This document shows, piece after piece, positions 2,589-62,998 of a stretch of 64,000 bases of DNA. Under the pieces are notes generated by a model. That model ran no database searches. It had not been told where the DNA came from and saw only the letters and a list, made by a program, of their open reading frames with translations. The stretch comes from Candidatus Gugararchaeum adminiculabundum (GTDB lineage Archaea; Micrarchaeota; Micrarchaeia; Burarchaeales; Gugararchaeaceae): NCBI GenBank assembly GCA_902384795.1, contig CABMDC010000004.1, positions 1,002-65,001 on the forward strand. Direction: 5' to 3'. The position numbers were made by a program, and so were the translations under genes. Position 1 is the stretch's first letter. The number at the start of each line of letters is the position of its first letter.

Positions 2589-3674
2589 TTGAGCGTGGAA
2601 TTAAGCCCAAAAAAGCTTTTCGTCATTTTTGCCCTGTTTTCGCTAATCTTCGCCTCGGGCTGCAGCACCGGGGTCAACGGCGAACGGACAAAACAGGATT
2701 TCTACTCATTTGATACTGGCGCGAACGCGGGCGAAGCGGCGGGCACGGGCACTACCGCGGAAACCTGCGCAGCGCCAACCGAGACGCCCCCCCCGGACGT
2801 CTGCTCATCCTATTCCTCGCTTCTCGGCCGCGCGTCCATGAATTTCCAGGGAATGGATTATGTCGACCAAACCGTTTACCACGTACAAATAGACGACCCA
2901 AGCGGTGCCAGTTCAGAGAGCATAACCCAGCAGGTGATTACCTACACCTCGATCAATGGGATGAAAAGTTTGACAACCCTTCCCAGCGGGACCTATGAAG
3001 TCTACTATGACCCACTAACTTACGCCCCCGATGCGTTGTCCTGCGACGAGACTACCGGGGCAACGGTGACCGACGGCGGAGATGTTTTCATTTGCGGGCC
3101 GGGGAACAGCTGGGTTTCAAATCCAAACATCGCCAATGATGTGGTGAACGGGGCCACGGGCTGGAAAAATAACAATTTGGTCCCTGTAGGATTCAAGGAA
3201 TACGGCCCGCAGCTCGGAGACCTGGGCAGATCCTCGGACGCGCCCACCTGCAACACCCTTGATGGAAACAACGGGAAATACTGCACGCACTGCATCGGGA
3301 CGGCCTGCGCCCCGTGCGCCAAGGATTCGCCGCCTTTCAATTCCCTGAAATGCGCAAGCGAGTGCGTTGATTTCTATGGATCAGCGCTCTATTCGGGGCA
3401 GGACGAGCAGGACCTCGGTGTCGCGAAAGAGACTGAAAAGGCGACAATCTACACCGGCGGCCCTGTGCAAGTGAAAGACTGGTACCAGGCGGAATTTTCC
3501 AAAACAACCGCCAATGGCGGGACAATAACAATGACAAGCGATTCCAATTACACGATGCAGGAAACGCCGATCCCCGAGGATTTCTTCAAACCGGAGAAAA
3601 GCAAATGCGGCGGCGTGCCCATGAAATGCACTCTTATCTGCGAATCCTCTGGAATGAAGTGCGGCTACACTTAA
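2589..3674 (+). CDS. secreted Cys-rich putative lipoprotein, function unknown
   Basis: 361-aa ORF with TTG start. The N-terminus KKLFVIFALFSLIFASGCSTG is a signal peptide with a lipobox-like SGC. There are many Cys residues, including the clusters CTHCIGTACAPCAKD and KCGGVPMKCTLICESSGMKCGY. I recognise no family motif. Confidence 0.7.
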   Translation: MSVELSPKKLFVIFALFSLIFASGCSTGVNGERTKQDFYSFDTGANAGEAAGTGTTAETCAAPTETPPPDVCSSYSSLLGRASMNFQGMDYVDQTVYHVQIDDPSGASSESITQQVITYTSINGMKSLTTLPSGTYEVYYDPLTYAPDALSCDETTGATVTDGGDVFICGPGNSWVSNPNIANDVVNGATGWKNNNLVPVGFKEYGPQLGDLGRSSDAPTCNTLDGNNGKYCTHCIGTACAPCAKDSPPFNSLKCASECVDFYGSALYSGQDEQDLGVAKETEKATIYTGGPVQVKDWYQAEFSKTTANGGTITMTSDSNYTMQETPIPEDFFKPEKSKCGGVPMKCTLICESSGMKCGYT

Positions 3675-4002: not shown

Positions 4003-4042
4003 TGTGGTTGCATATTTTTAGAACACGGACAGACTTGAATTA
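4003..4042 (-). other. 23S processing stem, 3' half
   Basis: 4003-4012, 4021-4028 and 4034-4042 are complementary to 7339-7348, 7331-7338 and 7281-7289 respectively. They bracket the 23S as in archaeal pre-rRNA processing helices. Confidence 0.65.
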
Positions 4043-4046
4043 AGTT

Positions 4047-7000
4047 TTATAATGGATTTAGTAATTGCGGGCTGAATGAATCGCGTGAGCTCTTCACTTA
4101 CACCCCAATCCTATCAAACCCGTCTGCTACGGGCTCCAATATCGCCTCGTTTTGAGATTTGCTTCGACCTTAGATGCTTTCAGGTCTTATCAAATAGCGC
4201 GTAGCTGCCCAGCAGTGCCTTGTTAGACAACTGGTAAACCAGAGGCGCCGATCCCAAGTTCCTCTCGTACTCATGGGACCTTACTCTCAAGCGACAACAC
4301 TCCTAAGAGATACTACCGAACTGTCTCGCGACGTTCTGAACCCAGCTCGTGTAAGTCTTTAATGGATGAACAACCCAACCATTGGTGGCTCCTGCACCAC
4401 CAGGATGACTTAAGCCGACAGCGATGTACCAAACCGCGGGGTCGATGGGTATTTGAGTAAAACTCTCCCACGCCCAACAGCGAAAACACGAACTGCTAGA
4501 TTCCATTTAGTATCCGCACGCTAGTCCATCGACTGGCCTAGCATGCGCTAGAAATCTGCCTATGAATTCCTTATGCAGAACTTATTGAGGAAGAATTTCT
4601 AACTAAACGAAAACGATAGCAGTTCGTACGCAAATAATTTAGGGAGAGATTTATCTCTCGCCCGCGACGAGCCTGTTACCCCCGGGGTAGCTTGTCTGAC
4701 AGCTTGGACCCTCATCAAAAGGGATACCAAGGTTCGTTAAGCCCGACTTTCGTCTCTGCATTCAACGCTCTTATGAATACAGTCAGTCTAGCATTTGTCT
4801 TTTTCCCTTAACCTCGCATTTCTGACGCGAGTAAGCTAAACATTGGGCATCCTTGTTTCCTTATCGAGGATGTACCGCCCCAGCCAAACTATCCATCTGC
4901 CGCTGTCCCTAATTAGGTAAGCAGTGTATCAACCAGTGATTGGTGTTACAAAATCGCCTATTTGCACCCCGAAAGATGCAACATAGCGGCTCCCAATTAC
5001 GCTCCGCATTGATCAAGACACTACAACAACAGACTATAGTAAAGCTCCACGGGGTCTTCGTTTCCCCTTAGAAGTCCTCCGCATATTCACGGAGTAGTGA
5101 GTTCACCAGGTCCTAGACAGGGACAGTGGGAGGCTCGTTATGCCATTCATGCAAGCCGCCAATTAAGCGGCGAGGTATTACGCTACCTTAAGAGGGTCAG
5201 AGTTACCCCCGCTCTTTGCCGGCGCTTAGTTCGGTTGAAACCGAGTTTGACGTACCGGTAGTGAGCAGGCATCGACCACTATACTAAGCCTTACGACTTT
5301 GCAGTGATCTGTGTTTTTGATAAACAGTCGACCTCCCCTTGATACTGAGACCTGCAGTTCTTGTAAACCGCAGGCATAGCTTGTCCCGAAGTTACGCTAC
5401 TATTTTGCCGAGTTCCCTTGCCTAGGTCACCCTGCTACGCCTTGGCTTTCTCTGCCAGCAACACCTGTACTGGTTCTAGGTACGATCTTGTGGAATCGGA
5501 TTAGTTCTCTTTTCGTGTACCCTTTTTACATATTTTTTATTGCGCAATTTCCCGCGCGCAACCCGCGTTACGTTATCCCCGCCCAAAATAAGGCAGAGAA
5601 GTTTTTCCGTTAACGCTTTTTGCTTTAGCAAAAAGGGTTATTTCACGGGCTCCGGGAATCAATCGAAGTATTGCTACCCCTCCAGTTGTTATCCTGCTTC
5701 TCTTCATAACGAATCTCCACAGGACTGCAAAAGAAGAACAACCCTTGCGAATTGCTCGACCTATCCCCAAGCGTCAAGAACTAAACTTGTCTTGCGACGT
5801 CTATCCACAAGGTGCGGGAATTTTAACCCGCTTCCCTTTCATGCAATGGTGATTGGCCTTGCATTTAGGATCGACTTACTCTTGGCTGACAAACGTTGCC
5901 AAGAAAACCGTGTGCTTACGGCGTTCAGGATTCTCACCTGAATTAGATGTTACTAACACCAGGATCTTCATAACAAGCCAGTCCACACAACCTTACGGCT
6001 GTGCTTCTGCCCGGCCCGTTCGCCTCCCTACCAGATGACTGCCCGAAGGCAGTCCTCTAGGGTTTCGGTTTCTGACTTAGTCCCGTACATCTTCAGAGCC
6101 AGCAAACTCGACTGGTCCGCTATTACGCGTTGTTTAAAGGATGGCTGCTTCTGAGCCTACCTTCCAGCTGTTTTTGCTTGGAGACTCCTTCATATTAACA
6201 CTTAGTCAGACATTAGGGACCTTAACCCTAGCCATGGTCGTTCCCATGCAACAACACTAGCTTACCCAGCGTCGTCGACTCCCGTCTTCTACGACGTGTA
6301 TAGATTCGGAGTTTGACAACGAGGTGACACCTTTCGATGCCGCTCCCCGTGATCAGTGCTCTACCCCACACACTATCTCAGACGAGGCTATCCTAGGAGA
6401 TACTTCGGAAGGAACCCGCTATTGCCATGTTCGATTGGACTTTCACCCCTAAACGCACGTCACCCGAGCAGATATACTAGCAACGGTAGCGGTCCTCCAC
6501 CAGCTGAAAAGCCGGCTTCGACCTGCGCACGTATAGATCACAATGGCTTCGGGTCTGGCAATAGTGACTAATCGCTTTTTCAAACGACGCGCCTCGCTTA
6601 TCACTGCGCGCAATCGCTTTCGCTTCGCATTCCTGCTCGCCACTATCGCAAACTCCCTGGCCCTTGACTCAAGAAGGACGATGTAATATTGGTAGTCCCG
6701 CATCGCTTCCACCCTTGCGAATGGTCGCTTCTGCAGGCGTTCATTCCTTTCACACTACATCAACCTGTAGCCTTTCAGTTTCAGGCACTTTTAACCCCCC
6801 TGTTCGGGGTTCTTTTCAGCTTTCGCTCGCGCTACTAATACGCTATCGGTCTCAGATCTGTATTTAGAGTTGCAAGTCGATACTCGCATCTTCACGCCCC
6901 ATACTCGAGGGACCTTACTCGCATCGCTCCCTTCCATCTAACCTTCACCTACGAGGCTATCACTCTCTCTGGCACAACTTTCCAGTTGCTTCAGTTCAAT

Positions 7001-7280
7001 TAAATGGATAGTTGGAGCGCCCACATCTACGGCACATTGCTGTGCCGCATTCAGTTTGCTCTGTGCTGCTTTCAGTCACCCTTACTTACAGCATCCCTAT
7101 TGGTTTCTTTTCCTCCCGTTACTAAGATGTTTCATTTCACGGGGTATCTGCCCATTACTGGGTATTCGGGAACCTCCGGTTCAACGGCTGCATGCGCCTA
7201 GCCGGAGCTTTTCGCAGCTTGCCACGCCCTTGCTTTTATCTGAGCCAAGCCATCCTCTGAAAGGCTTCGTAACAAAACAC
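4047..7280 (-). rRNA. rrl: 23S rRNA (interrupted by a ~208-nt insertion; ends approximate to about 15 nt)
   Basis: Reverse complement contains the sarcin-ricin loop AGTACGAGAGGAAC (4258-4271). It also contains CTGAAAGCATCTAAG, ACGAGCTGGGTTCAGAACGTCGCGAGACAG, CCCCGGGGGTAACAGGCT, GAAGACCCCGTGGAGCTTTACTATAG and GGAACTCGGCAAAATAG, plus the 5' block GGATGGCTTGGCTCAG near 7255. About 3026 nt remain without the insertion. Confidence 0.95.
4447..4654 (-). other. ORF-less ~208-nt insertion in 23S helix 89 (intron or expansion segment)
   Basis: The conserved sequence runs GGGTAACAGGCTCGTCGCGGGCGAGAG, then the insertion, then ATCGACCCCGCGGTTTGGTACATCGCTGTCGGC. In E. coli (recalled from memory) only about 5 nt (UUCAU) occupy this gap. 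The insertion ends are complementary (CTCTCCC near the 5' end, GGGAGAG near the 3' end). No ORF is present. Confidence 0.7.
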
Positions 7281-7348
7281 TAATTCAAGTTATTATTTAT
7301 AGTTGACCTTTTTATGACTCAACTAATATTCCGTGTTCTGCAACCACA
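7281..7348 (-). other. 23S processing stem, 5' half
   Basis: Complementary to 4003-4042 (see that feature). Lies in the 16S-23S spacer immediately upstream of the 23S 5' end. Confidence 0.65.
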
Positions 7349-7534: not shown

Positions 7535-8050
7535 ATGCTCGCTCTATGCACATTCGCTTACTTAGTCTTTTTTTACAAGCAAACCAGACTGACTGATTTG
7601 TATAAAAAAGGAGGTGATCTATCCGCAGGTTCCCCTACGGATACCTTGTTACGACTTAGCCCCCCTCATGACATCTTAGTTCGACAACGCCATTAAAGCG
7701 CCGCCTCACTAAGAGATCACTTGGGTGACTTGACGGGCGGTGTGTGCAAGGAGCGGGGACGTATTCACCGCGCGATGCTGACACGCGATTACTAGGGATT
7801 CCAGCTTCATGGGGGCGAGTTTCAGCCCCCAATCCGAACTTAGGTTAGGTTTCAGAGATTAGCTTCCCCTTTCGGGGTTGCATCCCGTTGTCCTAATCAT
7901 TGTAGGCCACGTGTAGCCCAGGCGATTCGGAGCATACTGACCTACCGTCGCCCTCTCCTTCCTCCCATTTAACACGGGCAGTCTCCACAGAGTGCTCACC
8001 CCCCGGAGGAGATGATAGCAACAGTGGACAAGGGTCTCGCTCGTTTCCGG

Positions 8051-8648
8051 ACCTCTCAAGAAAAGTTAACATCATTCAGAACCGGTTAGATATCCTTTGA
8101 TTAGGGATATTTCTGAAATTTGCCTATAAAAAAACGGAAATCATCGCCCAGCACGAACAATTTCTTGTTGTGCTTGATTATGTGAAAATTCAAACGCGAG
8201 AGAATCATCTCGTCGTTAAGAGTTGCGTTCGCAAGATAGCATAATTTTTTCCCCTTGACAAGTTCCGTTCCTCCCATGGCATCAAAGACCCCTGCGATAT
8301 ACGCAGCAGCCTTGTCGTTTTTTTCACGGAAAATTTCCAGCGACTCGCGCTGGACTTTCTGGAAAAACTTTTCATATGCAGAATGGTAGAAAAAAATTTT
8401 GTCATCAACTCCCAGTTTGATTTTTTCCGGGGGCACGAGCTTGAGCTCGAGAATCTGCTTGAGGAAAATTTCGCACAATCGCGGATTTCCCTGGATGCCG
8501 ATTCCGTTATCGCTCCTGCGCTTGCTCCACAGGCCAATCAAATAGGCGAGTTCAGGTGTCAAATTTATTTTCATGCAAATCACAAATTTGTTTTCACATC
8601 GCTATTCCGTTGTACTATATTATTATACTTTTTTTCTTGAGGGGTTTA
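8051..8648 (-). mobile_element. 16S rRNA intron carrying a homing-endonuclease ORF
   Basis: The conserved block GTTAAGTCCGG / AACGAGCGAGACCC (around E. coli position 1090-1100) is split by about 598 AT-rich nt. The intron ends pair (CCTCAAGAAAA with TTTTCTTGAGAGG). CCGG is repeated at both junctions, so the boundaries are ambiguous by a few nt. Confidence 0.85.
8101..8583 (-). CDS. LAGLIDADG-family homing endonuclease (intron-encoded)
   Basis: 160-aa ORF inside the 16S intron, same strand as the rRNA. Two LAGLIDADG-like motifs are present: LAYLIGLWSKRRSD and AAYIAGVFDAMGG. Confidence 0.75.
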   Translation of the reverse strand: MICMKINLTPELAYLIGLWSKRRSDNGIGIQGNPRLCEIFLKQILELKLVPPEKIKLGVDDKIFFYHSAYEKFFQKVQRESLEIFREKNDKAAAYIAGVFDAMGGTELVKGKKLCYLANATLNDEMILSRLNFHIIKHNKKLFVLGDDFRFFIGKFQKYP

Positions 8649-8794
8649 CCGGACTTAACCGGACAGTTCGCACCACGAGCTGACGATGGCCATGCACTAC
8701 CTCTCGGCTCGTTAGGTAAGATCTTTAGTCTGACCTTCATCCTGCCGTCGCGCCTGGTAATGTTCCCGGCGTTGAATCCAATTGAACCGCAGCC

Positions 8795-8837
<43 letters not shown>

Positions 8838-9751
8838 ACCTTGCGGCCGTACTCCCCAGGTGGCAGACTAAACACCTACGCTACGGCACTGCATTGGCTC
8901 GAGGCCAACGCAACACCACAGTCTGCATCATTTACTGCTAGGGCTACTCGGGTATCTAATCCGATTTGTTCTCCTAGCCTTCGTCCCTCACTGTCAGACG
9001 CGTTTTGGTAGGGCGCCTACGCCACTGGTAGTCCGTATAGGATTACAGAATTTTACCTCTACCCCATACGTACTCCCTACCTCCCCCGCTCTCGAGCCAT
9101 GACAGTATTTCTTGCGCGCATTGAAGTTAAGCTCCAATATTTCACAAGAAACTTATCAGGCCAGCTACGGACTCTTTAGACCCAATATTCGTGGAGATCA
9201 CTCGGGCTGCCAGTGTTACCGCGGCGGCTGGCACTGGTCTTACCCACCCCTTATTCTACGAGCGTTCTAGGCTCGTCAAAAGATAGCCTTTAAGGCTACC
9301 ACTCAGAATTTCCTTATCACGCTTGCGCGCATTGTAAAGGTTTCGCGCCTGCTGCATCCCGTAGGACTAGGACCCTTGTCTCAGTGTCCTTCTCGGGGCT
9401 CCGACTCCCATCGCCCCCACTGATTATCGGCTTGGTGGGCCGTTACCCCACAAACTACCTAATCAGGCGCAGTCTCATCCTAGGGCGGACCGGCTCCAAT
9501 TCACCGGCCTTTTAAACGATAAAGCATTCCAGCATCTATCGCCCATATGGTATTACCCTCAATTTCTCGAGGTTATCCCCTTCCCTAGGGCAGATTGACT
9601 ACGTGCTACTGAGCCGTACGCCACCCACTGAAGTCAGTGGGTAGACTTGCATGGCTTAGGCAAATTCTGATAGCAATCCCCTCCAGCAGGATCAACTGGA
9701 GTTGCACACTAAAGTCTACTACATAAATTTCGAATTGTTCGAGGTTGCACT

Positions 9752-35098: not shown

Positions 35099-37189
35099 TT
35101 ACTCTCCGTATCCGCGCACCAGTTTCACAAAATTAGGCTTGGGCTTGTACAGCTCCCCCTTGTGGATCAGGTCATCCACAATCCTGTTCGCCTTTACCGA
35201 GTCAATTCCGTAATCCCCGCACTTTTCAATCACCTGGGCGATGGAAACCTCGTCAAACTCCTTTGCAAGCTCGCGGATAATTCCGAGAATCGTGTTGATT
35301 TTGTCCACCTGCGATTTCGGCGTGCCCGTGGCAACAATATCCCCGTCAATCCTGTTTGTTTCCTTGTCCACCATGATGGTGTGCAGCATGAAATTGAGCA
35401 GGCCGATTGAGCGCTCGGCATCAACCGATTCCACTCTTTCAGACAATCTCATCTTCGCGCTCGCTTCCGCCAGCCTGATCAACCCTTCAATCGCCCTCGG
35501 AGTAATCGGAACCGCTCCCTGCTGCGCGCCGATTTTTCTCAAGTCAACATAATAATCGCGAATCCTGGTTTTCGCCTCCTGGGTGAGCACAGGCCTGATG
35601 TGCTTGCGCGCATAGGCAATATACTGTCTCAGGAATGCCGGGTTCATTTCACCCACGTCCCCCTGCCAGTCGCTTTTTGAAAGCGTCCTTCCCTCTGCCG
35701 CGCGCTTGGATGCGCTTTCGTGTGATGCGAGTATGTGCTCGGCCATCATGGTGTCCCTTTCGGCATCCAGCACGTCGCGGATTACGAAAATCAAATCAAA
35801 CCTTGAAAGCAATGTTGGCGGAATATTGAACTGCTCGGATGGCAATTTGTACGGGTCGAATCTTCCGTATTCAGGGTTTGCTGCCGCAAGAATGCTCGTC
35901 CTTGCCCTGAAGGTTGCCACAATTCCTGCCTTGGCAACCGAAACGGTTTGCGATTCCATAACTTCGTGCATTGAGGCAGTGTCCTCTTCGCCGATTTTGT
36001 CAAACTCGTCAACGCATGCCAGGCCTCCGCTTGCAAGCACCAGCGCGCCTGCCTTCAATGTCCAGCCCCCGTCGCTCAACGGATCCTTTTCGGCTGATGC
36101 GGTCAAACCTGCTGCGCTCACTGATTTTCCTGAAACATAAACACTTTTTGGTGAAATGTCCCGGGTATACTGCAAAATCCTGGTTTTAGCGGCACCCGGA
36201 TCGCCGACCAATAGAACGTGAATATCATGCCTGATTCTTGACCCGTCTGGCAAAACCTTGTCATGGGTTCCTCCGAAAAGCTGGAGCGCGATTGCCTGCT
36301 TCACTTCCTCATGCCCATAGATTCCAGGGGCAACTGATTTGGAAATAATGTCAAACAGGCGCGGGCTTTTGGACAATTCAATGATTTTCCTTTCCTCTTC
36401 TGCCGAAAGCTCCAAATCCTCAAAATCATTCTGCTCTTTCTGTAAATAGTTCACTTCCAGGTATTTCGAATAGACATTGGGATTCTTTCCTTTTTCAGGG
36501 GGTTTCAGCCTCAGGATGCCGGAGAGAATCACCCTGTCCCCAGGTACATAGGTGTTCACCAGATCATCTTCGATCCATAATTCAAGATGGCCGGTTGGCG
36601 CTCCGCTCTTCGCCCTTTCCAAAAGCTCCTGCACCTCGGCCCGCTGAAGGTCAACAAAATAGGATTCCTCCTCGACCATTTTGAGCGAGCGGCGCTTGCA
36701 GTCATCGCAGATGACCGGCGCGATCGCGTTCTTGGTCATTGCAATTTTGTGCTTTGCATCGCACAATTGGCAGACATAAACGGCAATCCTTACTTTTGGC
36801 TTTACCTCGGCGCGCTTGGTCACGATCCCCTCAACGCGGATTAGTTTCTCGATGTGGTGCGAGCCGACGCTTTCAATCAGCAGGCCGGAATAGGGGAGGT
36901 TCATGAAGCGCACATGCGGCTCGAATTCCTCCTTCTCCTTCCGGTCCAGCAGGTTGACCGTAATGTTCAGTTTCTTTATCGCTTCCTTTGCGGCATCGAT
37001 GATTTTGTCAGGGCTTTTCAGGAGCTCGTCCGCAAGCTCCATGTTGAATTTTTCCAAATCCAGGTAGTCGACGATAAGGCCCTTTTTCCTCGGGTAATTG
37101 AGCGCCAGCTCGTCAAGCCCTTTTTTGCAATATTTCTCCAGGAATTCCTCGAAGACCGATTCTACCTGTGAAACTTCTTCCATTGCCAT
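35099..37189 (-). CDS. mcm: MCM replicative helicase
   Basis: Zinc motif CQLCDAKHK...CDDCKRR, Walker A GDPGAAKT, Walker B CVDEFDK, arginine finger SRFDLIF, 696 aa, no intein. Confidence 0.97.
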   Translation of the reverse strand: MAMEEVSQVESVFEEFLEKYCKKGLDELALNYPRKKGLIVDYLDLEKFNMELADELLKSPDKIIDAAKEAIKKLNITVNLLDRKEKEEFEPHVRFMNLPYSGLLIESVGSHHIEKLIRVEGIVTKRAEVKPKVRIAVYVCQLCDAKHKIAMTKNAIAPVICDDCKRRSLKMVEEESYFVDLQRAEVQELLERAKSGAPTGHLELWIEDDLVNTYVPGDRVILSGILRLKPPEKGKNPNVYSKYLEVNYLQKEQNDFEDLELSAEEERKIIELSKSPRLFDIISKSVAPGIYGHEEVKQAIALQLFGGTHDKVLPDGSRIRHDIHVLLVGDPGAAKTRILQYTRDISPKSVYVSGKSVSAAGLTASAEKDPLSDGGWTLKAGALVLASGGLACVDEFDKIGEEDTASMHEVMESQTVSVAKAGIVATFRARTSILAAANPEYGRFDPYKLPSEQFNIPPTLLSRFDLIFVIRDVLDAERDTMMAEHILASHESASKRAAEGRTLSKSDWQGDVGEMNPAFLRQYIAYARKHIRPVLTQEAKTRIRDYYVDLRKIGAQQGAVPITPRAIEGLIRLAEASAKMRLSERVESVDAERSIGLLNFMLHTIMVDKETNRIDGDIVATGTPKSQVDKINTILGIIRELAKEFDEVSIAQVIEKCGDYGIDSVKANRIVDDLIHKGELYKPKPNFVKLVRGYGE

Positions 37190-44861: not shown

Positions 44862-47800
44862 TTATTTGCTGGTTATAGCAAGCGCTTCAAATGATCTGCC
44901 TTGTATAAGGTCGCTCCCGTAACTGCCAACGGCATTCGCGAATATCGCTCGAGCAGGTTTTGGTGCTGCGCTAATCCTGACTTTCTTTTGTGGATTTTCG
45001 GTTATTCCCGTTTCTTTTCTGAAGTTTTCAAGCCCTTCTGCCAAATTTTTACCCTCATAATAGTATACCCTGGGTTTTTCATGGCCGGCTGCCTCGAGAT
45101 CTGAGAACGTTTTTTCATACTGCGCTTTCTTTGATTTGGGCATCAATACCACGCCCAAGTCCAGATCAACTTCGTGGGACTTATGGAGGGGGTCATCAGA
45201 TAGCCCCATAAGCGGAGAATCGGCTTTTGTTTTGCTGTTCATTAATGGATCGTAAGCAAAACCATGCCCATTTTCCATCGCAGCCTCCAGCGGAAGCACT
45301 ATGGCTATATCGGATATATCCACCGCAGCTCCGTTCACCACAGTGTGCACATAAGGAGTAGAGATTCTATTAGTCTTGATACCGTTGTTTGTTCTTTCTT
45401 CGTATATCCCTCTCCCAATGAGGTGCCCGCTTTCAAATATCTTAGTCTGCAGATTTTCATCCGGAGTCATGGCATGCACTAGCAGATTGCCCGACCCCTT
45501 ATCTTTTACCAAGTGGGTGTATTCTTCCAGAGTCATGTCCTTGATTGTGCTTTCGTTCCATGTTTTCCTGGCGCTGGGGTCAATTTCATAATTTTTCTTA
45601 AAACTCGCTATCTGTTCCTTAGTAAACAGTTTCATCTCAACAAACTGCATATGCCCGTTGTATTCGAATCTCCCGTCATTTTTCAACATGTCCGCGAAGT
45701 CGTTTAGGTGGATGTTTTTCCCTTCGAATTCTACTCCCGTTGTGGTCAACTCAGGCAGATATTTAACAACCTGCAAAATCGCTTCCCTGTTAATGCCATC
45801 CGTGCGGGACAGAGTGTCCACCAGGCTGCGGGCATCAATTTTTCCAGCATCAAGGTCAGGAGCTTGGACGAACTCCCCGCGCGAATCCTTTACTGGATCA
45901 AGGGAGTTGATAATGGATGCGATTACTTTTGCATCAGGGTTTTTTTCCAGATAAGGCAGGCTGGCTTCGACAAGATTATTTTCAGTTTGGGAATATCTGC
46001 TATCCCGCTCTAATTTACGGTTTATTTTTCGAAGTAAATCGCTTACGCTTTTATCGCTTGCCAGGTCGCCATTTTTGTGTATGGCATCGAATATGTCTGG
46101 CAGTAAATCCTCCGTCCGAACCCCCTCGCTTCCTATCCTGTCCGCCAGTTCGTTTGCAGCGTTAGTTCTATGCTCTGGTTTAGAAAGAAGATTTGCCAGC
46201 TCTTTTGGTGTGCTGTTTTTTAAATCGCCAATTTGAACTGGCGCTGTTTCTTCGCTGGATGGTTTCTCAACCGTAGCTGTTTCTTTATTGACTTTTTTCT
46301 GCGCTGGTGCATGCTCACCACCGCTTTTTTTTGGTGCATTAAACGCCTTGAGAATCTGGTCCTTGGTCAGCCCTTCCTTCTGCAGTGTATCAAACGCGCT
46401 TTCAACGCTTTTCCTGTATTTTCCTTCGGCCGCGTCTATGCGATTTTCAGCCTCCGCTTTCTTTGCCTGAACATCATCTGGATGGAGGAATTTTGTGCTG
46501 CCATCGGCATTTTTAACGCGGTACATTCCGGTTTTACTGTCCAGCCCTCTTGCAACCGCATCGTCGATTCTCCGCAGATCGCTGGTTTCAGTTTCCATCA
46601 CGTTCTGCCAATTTATGTACCTGTCTTGGGCTTCGCCGAATTTGGGTGCGACCGTATCGTAGAATTCATTCCTAGGCACCTCTGTTAAATCGGAAAGCGT
46701 CCTCAGCCCTTTTGCAACATCGGTTGGCAGCTGGTATCTTCGGTCTGAGCCATAAACTTCGGATTGCCGGGCCCAGGCGTTTGTATTTTCCGGAGCTTTC
46801 GCGCCTTCAACCGAACCCTGGAACATCTTGTCAAATGTTTCAGGCCCGATGCGCGTAGCAATTTCCGCCGAGGTTGCGGCTGGCGTCTGCACCTGTGCTC
46901 CGCCTTTCCCGGCTGCCTCGTTTGGAGAAATTTCTGTTTCCGGCCTTGCAACAGGAACTGATTTTTCTTTTGGAATTGCGGCAGCCGCATTTTTATTATC
47001 CGCCACTTCCGTGAGAAATTCGCTGAGTTTGATCGGAGGATCTCCGCGCGCCCTCCTCATCGTATTCATCGCGTCCCACGCCGTAAGCATCGGGTCCGTT
47101 TCTTCGGTTTGTGTTTTGGCTTTCAGCCCGGCCGCTTCTCCCTGCTTGATTTCCGTGTATGGCTTTGGCGCAGTAACCGCGTTCCCGCTCTCCAATTCTT
47201 TGGCTTTCCCCTCGCAATAGTTTGCTTCACGGGTTCCGGGGACGAGCGCCCTTTCCCTAAATGTTTCGTAATCAACATTTGGCATCATGCTTGCAATGCC
47301 CTGGCTGTGGAGCGATGCATTGTGAATTTTGAGCTCGTCCCAAAAGCCCTTAATCATCTGATCGGTCAAAACAGGCGCCTTTGCCACCGGTTCTGGTTCT
47401 ACCCTTGCAGTTCCTGGCTCGTTTTCATCATGCGGGGGCCCGCCCTCCTTACTGGCCGCGCCCAGTGCGTTTCCCTGGGTCTGCTCAAAAACTTTCAGCT
47501 TATTCGTTACGGCTAATTCCGAGTTCAAGCCTTTTCCATTGTAATATTTCTCAAGCCCTTTGATTATCGGAGTATAGTCTCCGCTTGTCAGCGCCTTGAA
47601 TAGGATTTCGTCTCCGTTCTTGCCAAGGAACTTTGAGAATTCTTCAATGCGGGCCACTTCATTGGTATAGCCGGTGCTCTTCCGGCCTGTTGCTTTGCCT
47701 GTGAAGTACTCGGTAAGGCCTTCGTGCATTCCCTGGAAGACTTTATTCAGGTTCGGGTATTTTTGTGCAAGAGCGGCCTGCTCCTTATAGTTTTGCAAAA

Positions 47801-50800
47801 TTGTCGGATCGCTTGCTTTTTCGAGCCTTAGTTTGTTTCTCAATTCGCCAAGCGCGGTTTTTACCTGCTTGCTTTCCTCGTAAATGTCCAGCACCTTGTT
47901 GTCACTTGCATATTTTTTGGAGGGATCCGGGTGAACTGTCATTTCCTTCAAATCGAGCTTATTCCTGACTTCGCCCAGGGCGGCTTTTAGTTCATTCTTA
48001 TCAACAGGCTCTTTGTTGACCGCCTTGTCAAGAACAGCTTTTGATTGCGGGGAGATTTCAGTGTCAATTCCAATAACTTTTCCTCCTGTTGCCCTGGTCC
48101 TAACCGCGCCATCCAGGACAAAGCGCGAGGCAAATGACAGTTCTTCGCGGGAATAGGGGGTGGCTTCGTGCATGAACTCATGGACCAGCAGGCCGGATAT
48201 GCGGGGTATGTCTAGGCCTTTGCTAGGTTCATAGCGTATCATAATAACCGGAGGATCCTTGCCCGTAGCGTCAACGATATGCAAACCAGCGGTTCTTCCG
48301 CCCTTGCCGGGCGGCAAAATCCGATCCATTGTCACGCCGTCCACAAACAGGAATTTGACGCCTGTGTATTTCCGTGCAAAATCCGGGGAATAGGACTTCT
48401 CAAGATTCCCCAGCGCTTTTCTTGCAATAACTGTCAGGTCGCGCATTTCATTAAGTGTTTCTCCTTTGGGCACTTCCAGGCCAGAGCCAATGTAGATTTT
48501 TGCCCCTTCTCCCTTCGGGACATTTGCTTCGTTCAAGCACTTCCGGGCAAAGGCGCTCTGCTGTTCGGAAGTGTGCAGCTGCATCGCCTGCCATGTCCCT
48601 TTCGCGTCGCGCACATAGCCAAGTTTTGTCAGAGCGTCCGCGCTCTTGAATTCCCATCCGTTTTTATCTATGTTCCAGAGCAGGCCTCCTTTTCCTTCTG
48701 AATTCTTGATGCGGCCGACTTCCCAAATTATCGTATCCCCGCTGGGCGTAGTCACCTGAAGTTTTCCCTCGCCTACTGTCTTCACTTGCGTGGGCCCGAG
48801 CACCGTGGCCGCTTCCTCAAAAAATCGTCCGTTGTAATCGATGTAAGTCATTGGGCCGGAGGTGGAGAGCGTGGTGGAACGTTCCCCTTTCGGGGCTTGT
48901 GGAAGCATCTCTCCTGACATCACTCCGTCATAAATAATCCGTGCAGCCTGCATTCTGCGCAGCTCGGTAAACTTCTGCTGTGGGGTCAACTTCCTCCACT
49001 CGGGCGATTTCACCATGTCTTCGTAGGGTTTTCTCATTTCAGGGGAAGTTTTGAGCTTGCCTGCAAGATCGATGATTTTCTGCTCAATCGGAATTTCAGT
49101 TTCAGTAACCGGCGCGCGCGGCCGTGTTCCTGTTCTGTTTCTGTCAGTAGTTTCAGATTCCGGAATGTCGGTTCCGATCCGCTTGGTTTTGGGCGCGGCT
49201 TTTTCAACCGGTGTTTGCGCTTCATGCGGATTCTCCCTTGAGGCGGCAATCCTTACCTTTGATTCCGCAACCGGCGTTTTTGTTTCAGTTTCAACTTTTG
49301 CAGTTATTTTTGTTTCAGTTTTCACCGCAGGTTCCGGAGCCGTTGTTTTCTTGGCAATTTCGGTTTTCGGAGCCGTTGCCTTGGTTTCCGTTCCTTTCTC
49401 TATGGGAGTTATTTTCGCTTTGCCATCTGTTTTTTTCGCCCCGCCAATTTGGTTCAGAAGGTCTGCGCGGCGATCAAACTCCTTGCCAAGGACTACTCCC
49501 TCCGCTGGTGCCGTTTCTGGAACTATCGCGGATTTTGAAGTTGCTGTTTCAACTGGGCGCGCTGATGCTGGAACTAATCCGCCGGCGCCCACTTCCGCCT
49601 TTGCCCTTCCGACTGCAAAATAATTCATCACATCCTGTGGAATTTTATTCACTTCGCGGCTAAGAGTCGGCATGTCCAGCTGTTTTCCGGTTGCGCCCTT
49701 GTACATATGCCCAAGAAAAACAAGGTTGACCGCGATGCTGGACACATCATTCATTATTCGCTCGGAATCTCCCCGGTTTTGTACAATATCATAAATCAAA
49801 GTTCCGCTGTTCTTGACCATATCTGTTCCCATCATGATTGACCCGGCTTTGGAAGCAATCCTGGCTGCAGTGCTTCCCTCCTGCGCGACTTTGCCCAGGC
49901 TTCCTCCGAATACCATGGTCGCATCAACGCCCAGCCTCCAGGCGTCTTCACCGCTGAACTTGCCTGTCGTATAGGTGTTATACCCGGTTCTGCCCATGTC
50001 ATAAAGCGCCTGCGCCTGGAAATACAGTATCGCTTTCTCTCCTGCAAATCTCAAGCCAGCGCTCCACGCGCTTGCCGCAGCAACTCCTTCAGGCTGCAAA
50101 GTGAGCAGGCTCAGCAGCGTCAGAATCGGCGGGCCAGCCTGCATTGCAGTGTCCACTCCAGCCTGCACAAAAGTATTCGTGTTCTCATAGTTCATCTTGG
50201 ATTCAAAACCAGCGAATGCACCCGACACAAATTGGTGCTTGTATTTAGTATACGAAGCCTTGTCGGTTACTGATGCAAGCATGTTTGCGCCTGCAGTGAG
50301 CCCGCTGATTGAATCCCCAAGAACAGTCGCCTTCTGGCTTTTGGACAAGCCGGTTTCGCCTGCCACGTAATCAAACGCAGTTCCCATGTACAGCATAAGC
50401 TGATCGAAATGTTTGCCATTGAGTTCTGCATCTACCGCTGCCCCGTCTTTTCGAAGCAATCTTGAGTAAAGTGTATTCGCCGCAATGCTGAACCCGTTTG
50501 CATTGCTTTCAAGACTAACCCACTCTTTTCCTTCCACTGACCTTGCAAGATTTCTGACCCAGAGTACGGTGGTGTCTTTCGTGCCAAGCTTGGAGATATC
50601 GTCGTGCAATTTGTCCGCAACCATTTTGAGGCTCTGGGAGAGGAACACAGCGTAATCAACCGTGCCGTTCTTATTCACCCAGTCATAGTGCGCGTTCTTG
50701 CCTTCGTTCCAAGTTCTTGCAAGCCCCTGGATGCGGCCCCTCATCACCAAACTAACGTCCGGGCAATTGCTGAAGTTTTTCGCATACTGATCAGTGAGAA

Positions 50801-52373
50801 AACTAAATGTCTTCATTGCATTCGGCTCGCTCACTATTTTTGCAAGCGCCACATCCCCTTTCCGGATTTTCTGATTGATCAGCGTAAGCTGCTCCAGAGT
50901 TGCTCGATTGCTCTTGTCCCCGCTATTTATCAGAGCCTGCGCGCAGCCATTGAGCATTGAAAGTGACGGGACCGCATATTGAAGGTCAATACTGAGATTT
51001 TCATGTCTTTTCAGTGCTGCTTCACGCTGTTCCGGAGTTGTTGCGTTTTTGAGGTCCGCGTTTACGCTGGTTATTCTGTCCTCCCACACAGAACCCCGCA
51101 GAAACTGTAGCGAACCTCTTGGAGAGGTAATCCCCGCTAGCTGATTTCTGGTGCTTGCTTCTGCGCTAGCCACCTGAAAGTTAGTGAACATGTCGCTGAA
51201 TTCTTTCAGAAGCCCGGGCAGGTCTTCAGGCTTTGCCCCCTGGAGCCTTGAACGCATGTCCGTGAGTTCTGATTTCCAGTTTTTGCGCATTTCAAGCAAA
51301 GTCGGATCCCCTGCGCCTTTGTTCGTGCGCAGGTTTGCTTCGAAAGCTTCCAGGGTTTTGTCGCACATATCAATTGCCATGCCCTGCTTCTGGGCAGTGT
51401 CCCTGGCGACTGCCTCTTTTATGATCGGAGCCATTTTTGTTTCAAAAGCCTGCATTTCGGTTCCAAGTTTTTTCTCCAGGGCAGTTGCTTTTGCCTCAAG
51501 CTTTGAAAAATTGTCGAAATGGTTCAACGAATCGGCGTATAATTTTTGGGATGTTTTCTCGTCGCCGTTAGCCAGCGCATCCACTGCCTTACGGTAATCG
51601 GAATTCATTGCGTCGTGCTCTTTTTTCATCTGCTTCTGCATATCACTGAGCTCTTTTGTGGCGCTCTCGATACCACTGGCATAACCTTTTGTCTTTGGAT
51701 TGGCTTGCAGCATGGGCTTGAAGTTTTCCAGTTCTTGTTTTCCCGCATCAATGTTCTGCGCAATAACTGCAAACCTGGCTTCGTTTGTGGTGGATTTTTC
51801 AGAGCAGGAGTATATGCTGGTTAAAACAAATACCTGTGTTTGGTAAATACTTTTAAGGCGCGTCTGGACTTTTTGCGAGTTCAGCTCTAATTCAGGCAGC
51901 GTTGACAGGGTCTGCATCTCGGTCTTCAAATCATTGAGCTTTCCTAGGACGAAATTCTTTGTTTCCAGTGGAAGAACGACTTGTTCAGTTAATGTAGTTA
52001 GGTGGTCTATAGCCGCTATTCCATTCTGCACATATTCCTTGTTGGTCAGTATTTGCCCGGTTTGCTGCCGTGGGGCAGTCGGGGCGATTATAGCTGCCGG
52101 CGCCTGGACAGCCTTGGGTTCCACTGGCTTTTCCGGTTGAGTCGCGTTCTTTAGGTTGTCAAAAGTCTTATCCGCAGGAGGAGTAGTTAGGATATTGTCA
52201 GTATTTAGGAGACCTGTTTTTTTATGCTCGAGGCCGCCCAGAAATTGGGTTACAAATGCTCCCTGGGCCTGTTTTTGCAGTTGCGCTGCTTTTTGCGCTT
52301 CCGCTGGCGATTGTATTGGAGCGACTGCCTGTTTCAGCCCCCCCTCCTCAGGCTCTTTTTTATACCCGGTCAT
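44862..52373 (-). CDS. giant 2503-aa protein with one HExxH zincin-like motif
   Basis: Uninterrupted 7.5-kb ORF with no N-terminal signal peptide. The N-terminal ~650 aa are coiled-coil-like. A Gly/Ala-rich hydrophobic patch spans about aa 690-890. A Lys/Thr/Glu/Pro low-complexity linker spans about aa 980-1100. LLVHEFMHEATPY places HEFMH at nt 48168-48182. There is an internal repeat ALGEVRNKL / ALGELRNKL. The C-terminal ~300 aa are unassigned. Confidence 0.85.
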   Translation of the reverse strand: MTGYKKEPEEGGLKQAVAPIQSPAEAQKAAQLQKQAQGAFVTQFLGGLEHKKTGLLNTDNILTTPPADKTFDNLKNATQPEKPVEPKAVQAPAAIIAPTAPRQQTGQILTNKEYVQNGIAAIDHLTTLTEQVVLPLETKNFVLGKLNDLKTEMQTLSTLPELELNSQKVQTRLKSIYQTQVFVLTSIYSCSEKSTTNEARFAVIAQNIDAGKQELENFKPMLQANPKTKGYASGIESATKELSDMQKQMKKEHDAMNSDYRKAVDALANGDEKTSQKLYADSLNHFDNFSKLEAKATALEKKLGTEMQAFETKMAPIIKEAVARDTAQKQGMAIDMCDKTLEAFEANLRTNKGAGDPTLLEMRKNWKSELTDMRSRLQGAKPEDLPGLLKEFSDMFTNFQVASAEASTRNQLAGITSPRGSLQFLRGSVWEDRITSVNADLKNATTPEQREAALKRHENLSIDLQYAVPSLSMLNGCAQALINSGDKSNRATLEQLTLINQKIRKGDVALAKIVSEPNAMKTFSFLTDQYAKNFSNCPDVSLVMRGRIQGLARTWNEGKNAHYDWVNKNGTVDYAVFLSQSLKMVADKLHDDISKLGTKDTTVLWVRNLARSVEGKEWVSLESNANGFSIAANTLYSRLLRKDGAAVDAELNGKHFDQLMLYMGTAFDYVAGETGLSKSQKATVLGDSISGLTAGANMLASVTDKASYTKYKHQFVSGAFAGFESKMNYENTNTFVQAGVDTAMQAGPPILTLLSLLTLQPEGVAAASAWSAGLRFAGEKAILYFQAQALYDMGRTGYNTYTTGKFSGEDAWRLGVDATMVFGGSLGKVAQEGSTAARIASKAGSIMMGTDMVKNSGTLIYDIVQNRGDSERIMNDVSSIAVNLVFLGHMYKGATGKQLDMPTLSREVNKIPQDVMNYFAVGRAKAEVGAGGLVPASARPVETATSKSAIVPETAPAEGVVLGKEFDRRADLLNQIGGAKKTDGKAKITPIEKGTETKATAPKTEIAKKTTAPEPAVKTETKITAKVETETKTPVAESKVRIAASRENPHEAQTPVEKAAPKTKRIGTDIPESETTDRNRTGTRPRAPVTETEIPIEQKIIDLAGKLKTSPEMRKPYEDMVKSPEWRKLTPQQKFTELRRMQAARIIYDGVMSGEMLPQAPKGERSTTLSTSGPMTYIDYNGRFFEEAATVLGPTQVKTVGEGKLQVTTPSGDTIIWEVGRIKNSEGKGGLLWNIDKNGWEFKSADALTKLGYVRDAKGTWQAMQLHTSEQQSAFARKCLNEANVPKGEGAKIYIGSGLEVPKGETLNEMRDLTVIARKALGNLEKSYSPDFARKYTGVKFLFVDGVTMDRILPPGKGGRTAGLHIVDATGKDPPVIMIRYEPSKGLDIPRISGLLVHEFMHEATPYSREELSFASRFVLDGAVRTRATGGKVIGIDTEISPQSKAVLDKAVNKEPVDKNELKAALGEVRNKLDLKEMTVHPDPSKKYASDNKVLDIYEESKQVKTALGELRNKLRLEKASDPTILQNYKEQAALAQKYPNLNKVFQGMHEGLTEYFTGKATGRKSTGYTNEVARIEEFSKFLGKNGDEILFKALTSGDYTPIIKGLEKYYNGKGLNSELAVTNKLKVFEQTQGNALGAASKEGGPPHDENEPGTARVEPEPVAKAPVLTDQMIKGFWDELKIHNASLHSQGIASMMPNVDYETFRERALVPGTREANYCEGKAKELESGNAVTAPKPYTEIKQGEAAGLKAKTQTEETDPMLTAWDAMNTMRRARGDPPIKLSEFLTEVADNKNAAAAIPKEKSVPVARPETEISPNEAAGKGGAQVQTPAATSAEIATRIGPETFDKMFQGSVEGAKAPENTNAWARQSEVYGSDRRYQLPTDVAKGLRTLSDLTEVPRNEFYDTVAPKFGEAQDRYINWQNVMETETSDLRRIDDAVARGLDSKTGMYRVKNADGSTKFLHPDDVQAKKAEAENRIDAAEGKYRKSVESAFDTLQKEGLTKDQILKAFNAPKKSGGEHAPAQKKVNKETATVEKPSSEETAPVQIGDLKNSTPKELANLLSKPEHRTNAANELADRIGSEGVRTEDLLPDIFDAIHKNGDLASDKSVSDLLRKINRKLERDSRYSQTENNLVEASLPYLEKNPDAKVIASIINSLDPVKDSRGEFVQAPDLDAGKIDARSLVDTLSRTDGINREAILQVVKYLPELTTTGVEFEGKNIHLNDFADMLKNDGRFEYNGHMQFVEMKLFTKEQIASFKKNYEIDPSARKTWNESTIKDMTLEEYTHLVKDKGSGNLLVHAMTPDENLQTKIFESGHLIGRGIYEERTNNGIKTNRISTPYVHTVVNGAAVDISDIAIVLPLEAAMENGHGFAYDPLMNSKTKADSPLMGLSDDPLHKSHEVDLDLGVVLMPKSKKAQYEKTFSDLEAAGHEKPRVYYYEGKNLAEGLENFRKETGITENPQKKVRISAAPKPARAIFANAVGSYGSDLIQGRSFEALAITSK

Positions 52374-60912: not shown

Positions 60913-61161
60913 TTACTGCCTGTTGTACTTTTCCATTTTTGCGTGGAATTTTCTCTTCTTCTTTTCGAAGATTCTCTTGTGCTTTCCACAGCTTATGCAG
61001 TAGTATTTCTTGCTGTCAACGAAAACCGTGACATCGTCAGCTGTTTTCAGGTCAGTGGTATACTTGGTGCGGCCGAAATCGGTCACGCTTTTGTCGCGCG
61101 GGCACCTCCGTCCACAAGAACTGCAGTTTACAAGAATTTCCCTTCCTCTTCCCATAGTCAT
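60913..61161 (-). CDS. rps26e: 30S ribosomal protein S26e-like
   Basis: VNCSSCGRRCPRDKSV and YYCISCGKHKRI match the eS26 zinc-binding pattern, with a basic tail. Confidence 0.6.
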   Translation of the reverse strand: MTMGRGREILVNCSSCGRRCPRDKSVTDFGRTKYTTDLKTADDVTVFVDSKKYYCISCGKHKRIFEKKKRKFHAKMEKYNRQ

Positions 61162-61186: not shown

Positions 61187-62137
61187 TTAGTTAGTTTTTA
61201 GATAATTTTTAGCGGAACCCAGATTTATCCCGTTCAGCAAATAGATTTTCGCCTCAGCAGCTTTAAATAGCTTGTTTTTGAGGAGGGGGCCGGCTCGGTA
61301 GAAATCATTGGCAGCAGCGCCGCCACTATGGGCGCTGCGCCTGCGGTGCCTGGAGGCAGTCGCGCTCCAGCGCGACCGACCGCCCGAGCGGTCGCCGCAT
61401 CGTTTGGCGGCCCGATTTTTCGGCGAACCGAAAAATGGGCGCATTTGTCCTCGCGGGACAAATCGCGCAGCGCCCGGCGCGCTGCTGCCTTCGCGCGTAG
61501 AATTGATAGCTGAACCGGTAATTAATGGATTGAACGCAGGCACGAAAATCACCTTGATTTTCAGGTTCGCGTTCGGATACTTTTTGGCAAGCATTTCACT
61601 TTCCCCCTCCAATCCTCCCATCAGCCAGATTTTCTGCACTGATTTTGACTCCAATTTGTCAACAAACTCGATTGCCGGGTGGGAGTGGCCCACAAACAGG
61701 TAATCCTGCTGCATCATTTCTTCTGTTGGCCACGTGTGCCCATGGGCAAATGCCGCATTATTGTAAATCATGCCAGGCTGTTCAGCGAATTTCACATTTG
61801 TGTGAAACATGGCGTATTTCTTGAGCGAGCCATCGTGATTGCCTGGAACTATGGTAACTTCAAAATCCTGCAAGCCCTTGAAAAAATCAAAAACAAAATC
61901 ATCCTCGGCCGTAATCTTGTGCTTCACATCGCCCAGCAAAATTATTTTTTTGCAATTGTTCTCGTTTGCAAGTGCCACAATCTGCTCCACATTCTTCTTC
62001 AAAAAAACAGGCGCAGAGCCTTTTCCCAGAATTTCCGTTTCAAGCCCGATGTGCGCATCCGCAATCACCAGGGAATCGGAATAGACGCATGCTGGAACAT
62101 CGTGCAGAAAAATAGGCTCGAAAGATTTGGATGGCAT
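61187..62137 (-). CDS. calcineurin-like metallophosphoesterase carrying a 60-codon in-frame insertion
   Basis: IADAHIG, LLGDVKH, VPGNHDG, HGHTW and GHSHP. The C-terminal GPLLKNKLF...IYLLNGINLG looks native. The segment between is an Arg-rich translation of the GC-rich element. Confidence 0.8.
   Translation of the reverse strand: MPSKSFEPIFLHDVPACVYSDSLVIADAHIGLETEILGKGSAPVFLKKNVEQIVALANENNCKKIILLGDVKHKITAEDDFVFDFFKGLQDFEVTIVPGNHDGSLKKYAMFHTNVKFAEQPGMIYNNAAFAHGHTWPTEEMMQQDYLFVGHSHPAIEFVDKLESKSVQKIWLMGGLEGESEMLAKKYPNANLKIKVIFVPAFNPLITGSAINSTREGSSAPGAARFVPRGQMRPFFGSPKNRAAKRCGDRSGGRSRWSATASRHRRRSAHSGGAAANDFYRAGPLLKNKLFKAAEAKIYLLNGINLGSAKNYLKTN
61310..61489. repeat. 180-bp GC-rich hairpin-dense element with 11-bp terminal inverted repeats
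   Basis: GGCAGCAGCGC (61310-61320) pairs with GCGCTGCTGCC (61479-61489). Inside are these stems: 61359-65/61370-76, 61377-83/61388-94, 61415-23/61428-36 (9 bp), 61443-50/61456-63, and 61437-42/61470-75. On the gene (minus) strand three loops read UUCG, UCGG and UGGA. Confidence 0.8.
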
Positions 62138-62171: not shown

Positions 62172-62360
62172 TTACTTTATCTTAACCGCGTACTTGCCCG
62201 GGATTTTTGCGCCAATCTTTTTGGCAAGCTCGCTTTTCTCAGGGTCAAAGACCACGATATAACCGGAGTATTTCTCGGACAGGTTCTCGCCCTGGCAGGA
62301 GGGGCATTTTACGCCTTCCTTGATTATCAGGTGGCAGGTTTTGCATGCTTTTTCAGCCAT
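62172..62360 (-). CDS. spt4: transcription elongation factor Spt4 (RpoE'')
   Basis: CKTCHLI...CPSC zinc ribbon, SGYIVVFDPEKSELAKKIG, 62 aa. Confidence 0.88.
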   Translation of the reverse strand: MAEKACKTCHLIIKEGVKCPSCQGENLSEKYSGYIVVFDPEKSELAKKIGAKIPGKYAVKIK

Positions 62361-62371
62361 TCAAATCACAT

Positions 62372-62998
62372 CTATTTCTTTTCCTTTTTCTCCTTCTTTT
62401 CCGCTTTTTCAGCCTTTTCCTTCTTCGGCTTTTCCTTCTTGTCGCCCTCTTTCTCTTCCTTCTTCGCGCCTGGCGCCCATTCGGGCTTTCCAAGGCCGGA
62501 TGGCCTCATGGTAAGGCCGATTTTTGACTCGGGAATGCTGTTCTTGAGCGAAACTGTCGAGATTTTCGCAAGCACATGGTCGCCCTTTTTCAGGGTTTTC
62601 TTGCTCTCGCGGCCCACAAAGCTCTGCGAATTCTTGTCATAGGAAAGGAAGTCGTTGGTTATCTGCGAAAGGTGCACGAGCCCCTCGAGCGGGCCGAGCG
62701 AAATGAACGCCCCGAATTCCACGATTTCGCCTGCCTCGCCCTCGAACACTTCGTTCACCTCGGGTTTGTAGCAAAGCGCGTCAAACGTGACTGTGTGATG
62801 GGTTGCCCCGTCCCCGGGAATCACTCTTCCGTCGGAGATTTCCCTCGGGTTCCTTATGGAGATTATGATTCCGAGATCCTTGTCAACCAGCCTTTCGTAG
62901 TGCTCCCTCAGTATTTGCAGTACCGATTCCTCCAAGGACATGGAGAACAATTTCGGAGGTATGCTGACAACGTCTCTTATGGTATAAAGTGTATACAT
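62372..62998 (-). CDS. rpoE: DNA-directed RNA polymerase subunit E' (Rpo7) with Lys/Glu-rich tail
   Basis: N-terminal Rpo7 fold sequence, S1 domain GEIVEFGAFISLGPLEGLVHLSQI, tail KKEEKEGDKKEKPKKEKAEKAEKKEKKEKK. Confidence 0.9.
   Translation of the reverse strand: MYTLYTIRDVVSIPPKLFSMSLEESVLQILREHYERLVDKDLGIIISIRNPREISDGRVIPGDGATHHTVTFDALCYKPEVNEVFEGEAGEIVEFGAFISLGPLEGLVHLSQITNDFLSYDKNSQSFVGRESKKTLKKGDHVLAKISTVSLKNSIPESKIGLTMRPSGLGKPEWAPGAKKEEKEGDKKEKPKKEKAEKAEKKEKKEKK

Follow-up and report, generated by a model that had tools for sequence, protein, structure and literature searches.

A block of exactly 180 nt, rich in guanine plus cytosine (GC) and filled with hairpins, lies in frame within a metallophosphoesterase gene of Candidatus Gugararchaeum adminiculabundum, and it may be a single-copy, compositionally foreign foldback insertion that is tolerated in a permissive loop of the encoded protein. 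The block occupies positions 61310-61489 of a 64-kb stretch of contig CABMDC010000004.1 (GCA_902384795.1), which was analysed as a whole and is referred to here as the window, and it corresponds to codons 217-276, in phase 0, of a gene carried on the minus strand. The insert has a foreign composition, exact boundaries and a palindromic architecture, and it keeps the reading frame of its host. [quoted passage not shown]

A compositionally foreign block in frame with a phosphoesterase gene

The sequence-only reading that first drew attention to this locus had described a 180-nt block far richer in GC than its surroundings, and this was borne out: the block measures 71.1% GC against a mean of 49.0% for the window (standard deviation 6.0% for 120-nt windows), and it ties with positions 2718-2837 for the top GC peak of the 64 kb (both 0.733). 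The organism's own rRNAs have 49-50% GC, so the composition of the block is unlike that of a native stable RNA of a thermophile. At the three codon positions the insert has GC fractions of 0.65/0.80/0.68, compared with 0.51/0.31/0.52 in the remainder of the host gene, which argues that it carries no coding signature and has undergone no amelioration; the pattern also differs from that of high-GC coding sequence. Five of the six frames of the insert are open (P = 0.013 by mononucleotide shuffle and 0.031 under a structure-preserving null), a weak hint that it suits coding sequence.

The host gene (61187-62137, minus strand) encodes a calcineurin-like metallophosphoesterase of 316 aa, for which the nearest model is the archaeal SbcD-related TIGR00024. 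Both Pfam profiles that match the protein, Metallophos_2 (28.6 bits) and Metallophos (28.3 bits), score above their cutoffs, and the match to TIGR00024 (E = 5e-22, 78.7 bits) lies under the curated cutoff of 115.2. A database search found 57 proteins including the query, and the 56 homologues are mostly ~245-260 aa long (range 222-312), the best of them being only ~40% identical to the host protein. Residues D27, H29, D70, N100, H101, H132, H151 and H153, of the catalytic D/H/N motifs, are invariant across the host protein and 18 aligned homologues.

The same alignment defines the insert, as the sequence-only reading had proposed that it might. All 18 aligned homologues lack the 60 residues, which form a clean insertion between INSTRE and NDFYRAGPLL, and the insertion is equally clean against the TIGR00024 profile. 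The ends of the inverted repeat that bounds the DNA block coincide with the insertion boundaries inferred from the 18 homologues, and the loop in which they fall is variable, two homologues having short insertions of their own there. Exact removal of the 60 codons yields ...INSTRENDFYRAGPLL, after which the match to TIGR00024 becomes one unbroken stretch (residues 16-251 aligned to profile positions 11-220 of 224) and its score rises from 78.7 to 83.6 bits, the cutoff being 115.2.

The open reading frame (ORF) of the host continues through the block without an in-frame stop, as had been noted, and the translated insert (GSSAPGAARF...HSGGAAA, including the stretch GSSAPGAARFVPR) contains 12 Arg in 60 residues. 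When the protein was modelled with AlphaFold, with an alignment, the confidence score (predicted local distance difference test, pLDDT) fell below 50 only at residues 217-274 and was mostly 85-97 elsewhere, including the C-terminal strands past the insert; the insert is thus predicted to form a disordered surface loop at an indel-tolerant site. Taken together, the 18-homologue alignment, the continuous profile match without the insert and the low pLDDT support the earlier suggestion that the 60 residues would be non-native, noncoding-like sequence read in frame, with native phosphoesterase on both sides.

The gene stands third in an operon with the order rpoE' (62372-62998), spt4 (62172-62360), phosphoesterase and an eS26-like gene (60913-61161). 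The last of these lies directly downstream of the host gene, also on the minus strand, and encodes an 82-aa zinc-ribbon protein with an above-cutoff match to ribosomal protein eS26 (PF01283, 30.2 bits, cutoff 27). In two relatives the homologous phosphoesterase gene (L165, 10001-10732; L166, 9423-10163) has a HerA-like DUF87 ATPase on one side and a DHH phosphoesterase on the other, and in L166 it is additionally near Mre11 and Rad50; this gene context suggests a role in DNA repair. The neighbours of the gene in the window are, instead, those of a transcription and translation operon. A TATA-like motif with a palindromic core, TTTAAATA, is present on the plus strand at 61262-61269, inside the host ORF and ~40 nt upstream of the element, and it could be either a chance match or a candidate antisense promoter.

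Palindromes and fold of the block

The block is bounded by a perfect 11-bp inverted repeat, as originally reported (left arm 61310-61320, GGCAGCAGCGC; right arm 61479-61489, GCGCTGCTGCC), and a second perfect 11-bp repeat lies just inside the first (left arm 61330-61340, GGGCGCTGCGC; right arm 61465-61475, GCGCAGCGCCC). The outer and inner repeats, joined by a 3-bp GCC/GGC step, make up a closing stem of ~25 bp whose only irregularities are two bulges on its 3' strand, of 5 nt and 1 nt. Alternatively, the left end can form a local hairpin at 61314-61338 (GCAGCGCC ... GGCGCTGC, 8 bp) and the right end another at 61467-61485 (GCAGCGC ... GCGCTGC, 7 bp). These two hairpins have a common core stem, with GCAGCGC present four times in alternating orientation, and each end of the element is therefore able either to fold on itself or to pair with the opposite end.

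Within the closing stem, a three-way sub-domain at 61342-61399 is formed by a GCGG/CCGC helix around three hairpins, namely a weak one of 4 bp at 61347-61358, one of 7-8 bp at 61359-61376 and one of 7 bp at 61377-61394. The longest internal hairpin follows at 61412-61439 (12-nt arms, 92% complementary), with the loop sequence UUCG in the gene strand (CGAA in the plus strand), and the last hairpin, at 61443-61463, has an 8-bp stem (ATTTGTCC/GGACAAAT) and a 5-nt loop. The five consecutive stems that had been described are consequently present as hairpins, but not all of them in the size range given (6-9 bp), one being 4 bp and one ~12-15 bp.

The block has a minimum free energy (MFE) of -120.7 kcal/mol when folded as the gene strand and of -121.1 when folded as the plus strand, whereas dinucleotide shuffles average ~-93 +/- 4.4, giving z = -6.5 and -6.25 respectively, and none of 200 shuffles equals the native fold. 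A GC-corrected fold scan of the plus strand of the window placed the region of the block as its top outlier, with nothing comparable elsewhere. The fold and the block are far beyond chance, and the observation is real.

All 71 pairs of the gene-strand MFE structure are Watson-Crick and none is G-U, and the mirrored structure on the other strand is equally stable (-119.2 vs -118.1/-119.9). Evolved RNA helices usually have G-U pairs, and pairing that is purely Watson-Crick and symmetric between strands has the look of DNA palindromes. The hairpins are best read as a property of a DNA element, with its ends and modules, rather than of an evolved RNA. The argument that the folded form is an RNA on the gene strand, drawn earlier from the loops, fails on the same grounds and on those of the loops themselves: UCGG does not belong to the UNCG loops, which require C at position 3, and the pair that closes the UUCG loop is G-C instead of the extra-stable C-G.

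Likeness to mobile elements and the search for copies

The 180 bp would, on the tentative reading adopted here, represent a non-autonomous palindromic mobile element, either MITE- or RPE-like or a hairpin-ended derivative of an IS200/IS605 insertion sequence. Such an element would have entered an indel-tolerant surface loop of the phosphoesterase without target-site duplication and would have survived there because it is a whole number of codons long and brings no in-frame stop. The mRNA would then be read straight through, the insert being translated instead of removed, and the protein would gain a 60-residue, Arg-rich, disordered loop.

MITEs are 50-800 bp long with terminal inverted repeats, and among those of archaea 11% are intragenic (PMC11602168). 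The insert resembles MITEs such as Correia, ERIC and the Sulfolobus SM elements in its size range, its lack of coding capacity of its own, its occasional type of intragenic location and its terminal inverted repeats, which are perfect over 11 bp and extendable to ~25 bp with bulges. RPEs are palindromic insertions of ~150 bp that lie in frame in unrelated protein genes, are translated and occupy fold-compatible positions (PMC10969869). The insert resembles them in being in frame and free of stops and in sitting at a permissive site in what is predicted to be a disordered surface loop, where it would likewise be translated. RPEs, however, are multicopy (44 in R. conorii, in ten families), have a conserved peptide, are bacterial and are close to their genome in composition, unlike an archaeal insert that is single-copy as far as was searched, exceeds its genome by 22 GC points and encodes a peptide that has no match among 1.84 billion representatives.

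A third, tentative likeness is to PATEs, the IS200/IS605 family and REP/BIME, since the end hairpins at 61314-61338 and 61467-61485 have the same stem (GCAGCGC/GCGCTGC) in the same orientation on the same strand, and no target duplication is seen. Members of the IS200/IS605 family have hairpin ends and make no target duplication. REP/RAYT systems, the repetitive extragenic palindromes and their associated transposases, are bacterial. Pairing between the two ends of the insert (11+3+11 bp) nevertheless outdoes the hairpin that each can form by itself (8 and 7 bp), which is unlike elements of the IS200/IS605 family. Over 65% of the genomes of Micrarchaeota contain IS200/IS605 elements (PMC13343696).

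Outside prokaryotes, the fungal mitochondrial GC clusters (GC42 etc.) are also GC-rich hairpin modules in a lower-GC genome, and differ in belonging to organelles, in having units of 30-60 bp and in being highly repeated. Some of them lie inside coding sequence (VAR1). Translationally bypassed segments termed byps, which Lang et al. in 2014 reportedly described from Magnusiomyces mitochondria, are also said to lie inside coding sequence; byps need matched take-off and landing codons plus a stop, and none of these is present in the insert. In yeast mitochondria, GC-rich hairpin clusters form composite multi-hairpin units by merging, with their stems intact (PMC4478555). With RPEs (PMC10969869) and these clusters on record, the earlier statement that no described element fits was too strong.

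Further copies were sought widely. As reported before, the window holds no other copy, whether searched by short-word blastn or with the terminal 11-mer allowing one mismatch. A concatenate of the peptides from all six frames recovered only the host protein from 5.8 billion protein clusters, as did a HMMER search with the 60 residues against 1.84 billion representatives, so that no repeated family with a conserved peptide, as in RPEs, was seen. The terminal inverted-repeat pair, used as a gapped pattern against a genome collection, gave more than 119 matches; among the matches listed, all were from high-GC bacteria and none was similar in its interior. An internal 18-mer gave 45 chance matches in metagenome contigs, with 18-24 identical bases, including one imperfect match of 33 nt at 85% identity. 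Plasmids and phages had no match to the block by blastn, nor did viral contigs to four patterns. The phosphoesterase genes of relatives L165 and L166 are without the insert, and five loci of relatives (L165-L169) contain no comparable GC or hairpin island and no nhmmer match.

Two candidates within the window were set aside. A match of 18 nt within the MCM gene (36280-36297) is due to chance and has no hairpin. The other top GC peak (2718-2837, 73% over 120 nt) contains no hairpins and is unrelated to the block; it encodes a linker rich in Ala, Gly, Thr and Pro, close to the N-terminus of a secreted protein of 361 aa (2589-3674).

Several points weigh against a mobile origin, and they are largely those in which the insert departs from MITEs. 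There is no target-site duplication, as only AA adjoins each end and duplicating these 2 bp would disrupt the frame. An imperfect direct repeat (9/11) is present at 61298-61308 (GTAGAAATCAT) and 61497-61507 (GTAGAATTGAT), 1 and 7 nt from the ends of the element; it was rejected as a target-site duplication because its spacing of 199 nt is not a multiple of 3, so that an ancestral gene with one copy would have had the conserved GPLL...YLLNG C-terminus out of frame. The 56 ORFs scanned in the window gave no match to a transposase or integrase domain, and neither the Y1 transposase TnpA nor TnpB was among them, so no parent transposase is in view there. The GC content of MITEs normally tracks that of the host genome (PMC11602168), which that of the insert does not, and an interior dense with several independent hairpins is atypical of MITEs that arise by deletion of a transposase gene. 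Lastly, no second copy was found anywhere that was searched. That objection is weak, as the nearest MCM proteins in the databases are only 56-59% identical to that of this organism, which they place in the Candidatus Micrarchaeota (DPANN), and within its own genome copies were sought in 64 kb. Among the three options offered by the sequence-only reading, which were a tolerated MITE-like insertion, an excised or independently stable RNA and a regulatory structure, the first is the best, even with a second copy, a target-site duplication and a transposase not found.

Alternative origins and significance

An origin without mobility is unlikely, yet it is the most serious competitor to a mobile element. 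Here the block would be either (a) a one-off filler capture of foreign high-GC DNA during repair of a double-strand break or (b) a set of palindromes built on the spot, and kept perfect there, by template switching. Both would account for a sequence that is a singleton in every search, without target duplication and without a transposase in the window. Capture would also explain a composition like that of high-GC bacteria, in which the terminal 11-mer pair occurs by chance, 140-170 nt apart, in more than 119 contigs. A random fragment is, on the other hand, not expected to start and stop exactly at a perfect inverted repeat, nor to contain the same core in four alternating copies, and no donor sequence emerged among the matches from the genome collection, plasmids, phages and metagenome contigs. 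Template switching during replication generates reverse-complement copies and homogenises the arms of inverted repeats, and 71 of 71 Watson-Crick pairs, with no G-U and no mismatched pair, are the signature expected of it (PMC8794818, PMC8604942). Such switching copies local sequence, however, whereas nothing in the window resembles the block, and 71% GC is not derivable from surroundings of 45-50% GC.

A Micrarchaeota relative whose MCM protein is 58% identical (L167; GCA_028714235.1, JAQTMQ010000002.1) has 62.5% GC over 17 kb, which indicates that GC content varies widely in the phylum and that a high-GC donor need not be from outside the Micrarchaeota. The idea of a halophilic host, in which a high-GC haloarchaeal MITE had entered a nanohaloarchaeon, was rejected because of the Lys-rich proteins and the placement of the lineage in the Micrarchaeota.

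An element acting at the level of RNA is quite improbable. It could take the form of a relaxed bulge-helix-bulge intron cut out by the archaeal splicing endonuclease, of a stable RNA carried within the mRNA, or of a cis-acting structure at which ribosomes would pause or exonucleases be stopped on the rpoE'-spt4-phosphoesterase-eS26 transcript. A bulge-helix-bulge consists of two 3-nt bulges on opposite strands with a 4-bp helix between them, at the exon-intron boundaries. In favour of such an element, the fold of the block is extremely stable, removal of the 180 nt would retain the reading frame, and the window contains an RNA 3'-phosphate cyclase gene and a 603-nt insertion in its 16S rRNA whose flanks fold as a non-canonical bulge-helix motif. 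The two bulges of the closing stem are on the same strand, a misfit with the two-fold symmetric motif, and a strict scan returned no canonical hBHBh' candidate with 8/8 pairs and none spanning the insert; this scanner also missed the 16S insertion, which served as a positive control, and its negative result applies to canonical motifs only.

Micrarchaeota possess a splicing endonuclease of the epsilon2 type with a broad substrate range (PMC5829648, PMC12397907), which favours a relaxed intron. Bulge-helix-bulge introns are also known from archaeal protein-coding genes, as in cbf5 of Crenarchaeota (PMC2738675). The insert is similar to these in that it places a structured segment within the ORF of an archaeon that has rRNA insertions and belongs to a phylum with an endonuclease of broad specificity (PMC5829648); it differs in its host gene, in having no canonical bulge-helix-bulge at its boundaries and in leaving the frame open throughout, so that removal is not needed. 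Nothing positive speaks for relaxed splicing of the insert.

A stable or regulatory RNA is likewise improbable. The scan against Rfam 15 that had been suggested for it yielded no family even at E up to 10 (the best matches, at 15 bits and E 1.8-9.6, are far under the gathering scores), and across the window Rfam recognised the 16S and 23S rRNAs only. Beside rRNAs of ~50% GC, a native RNA with 71% GC would be out of place, there are no homologues and hence no covariation, and the pairing has neither G-U pairs nor strand asymmetry. The proposal of an excised or independently stable RNA draws no support from these results, as no Rfam match, no canonical bulge-helix-bulge and no asymmetry between the strands was found. 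A C/D-box, tRNA-like or ribozyme identity found no support, and an intein was rejected because the insert is too short and has no Cys/Ser...His-Asn boundaries.

The rRNA genes of the window have features of their own. The 16S gene (7609-9702, minus strand) carries its 603-nt insertion at 8051-8654, after model position ~1033. GUCCGG is repeated in the exon flanks, whose fold has a 3-nt bulge followed by 3 bp and a 1x1 loop. The insertion has no group I intron match, and it contains an ORF of 160 aa (8101-8583, minus strand) that has no Pfam match at E<=0.001 and in which LAGLIDADG-like motifs can be picked out by eye (LAYLIGLWSKRR, AAYIAGVFDAMGG). The 23S gene (4039-7283) is 3245 nt long against a model of 2987 positions, giving ~260 extra nt. 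Elsewhere in the window, a giant ORF of 2503 aa (44862-52373, minus strand) has no Pfam domain at E<=0.001.

Least probable of all is an artefact of assembly or amplification, in which a chimeric piece of a high-GC community member was joined to the archaeal contig. This would suit a metagenome contig and a block of foreign composition that is unique in the databases searched; but a stop-free, kept frame would arise only about 1 time in 9 (1/3 for length x 0.33 for an open frame), the piece would also need to land in the one insertion-tolerant loop, and amplification chimeras duplicate local sequence in inverted form, none of which was seen in the window.

One copy cannot raise the insert to a new family, and as it stands it fits a known phenomenon. 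As a long shot, the insert would be the first to be seen of a hitherto undescribed class of elements, rich in GC and with multiple hairpins, that colonise coding sequence in DPANN archaea. It would perhaps derive from a higher-GC host or partner, and so be a marker of a symbiont's partner, and would perhaps be cut out by the broad-specificity epsilon2 endonuclease or skipped by the ribosome instead of being simply translated. Rickettsia and fungal mitochondria offer well-documented cases of palindromic selfish DNA in frame, and no description of it was found for DPANN archaea. Should no further copy exist, the insert would be a curiosity that the gene tolerates in a permissive loop. If more copies exist, they would extend coding palindromes to reduced archaeal genomes and would provide a natural case of a 60-residue, disordered, Arg-rich loop grafted on to a nuclease-type enzyme, and their foreign GC content might point to a donor, possibly the host organism of the symbiont.

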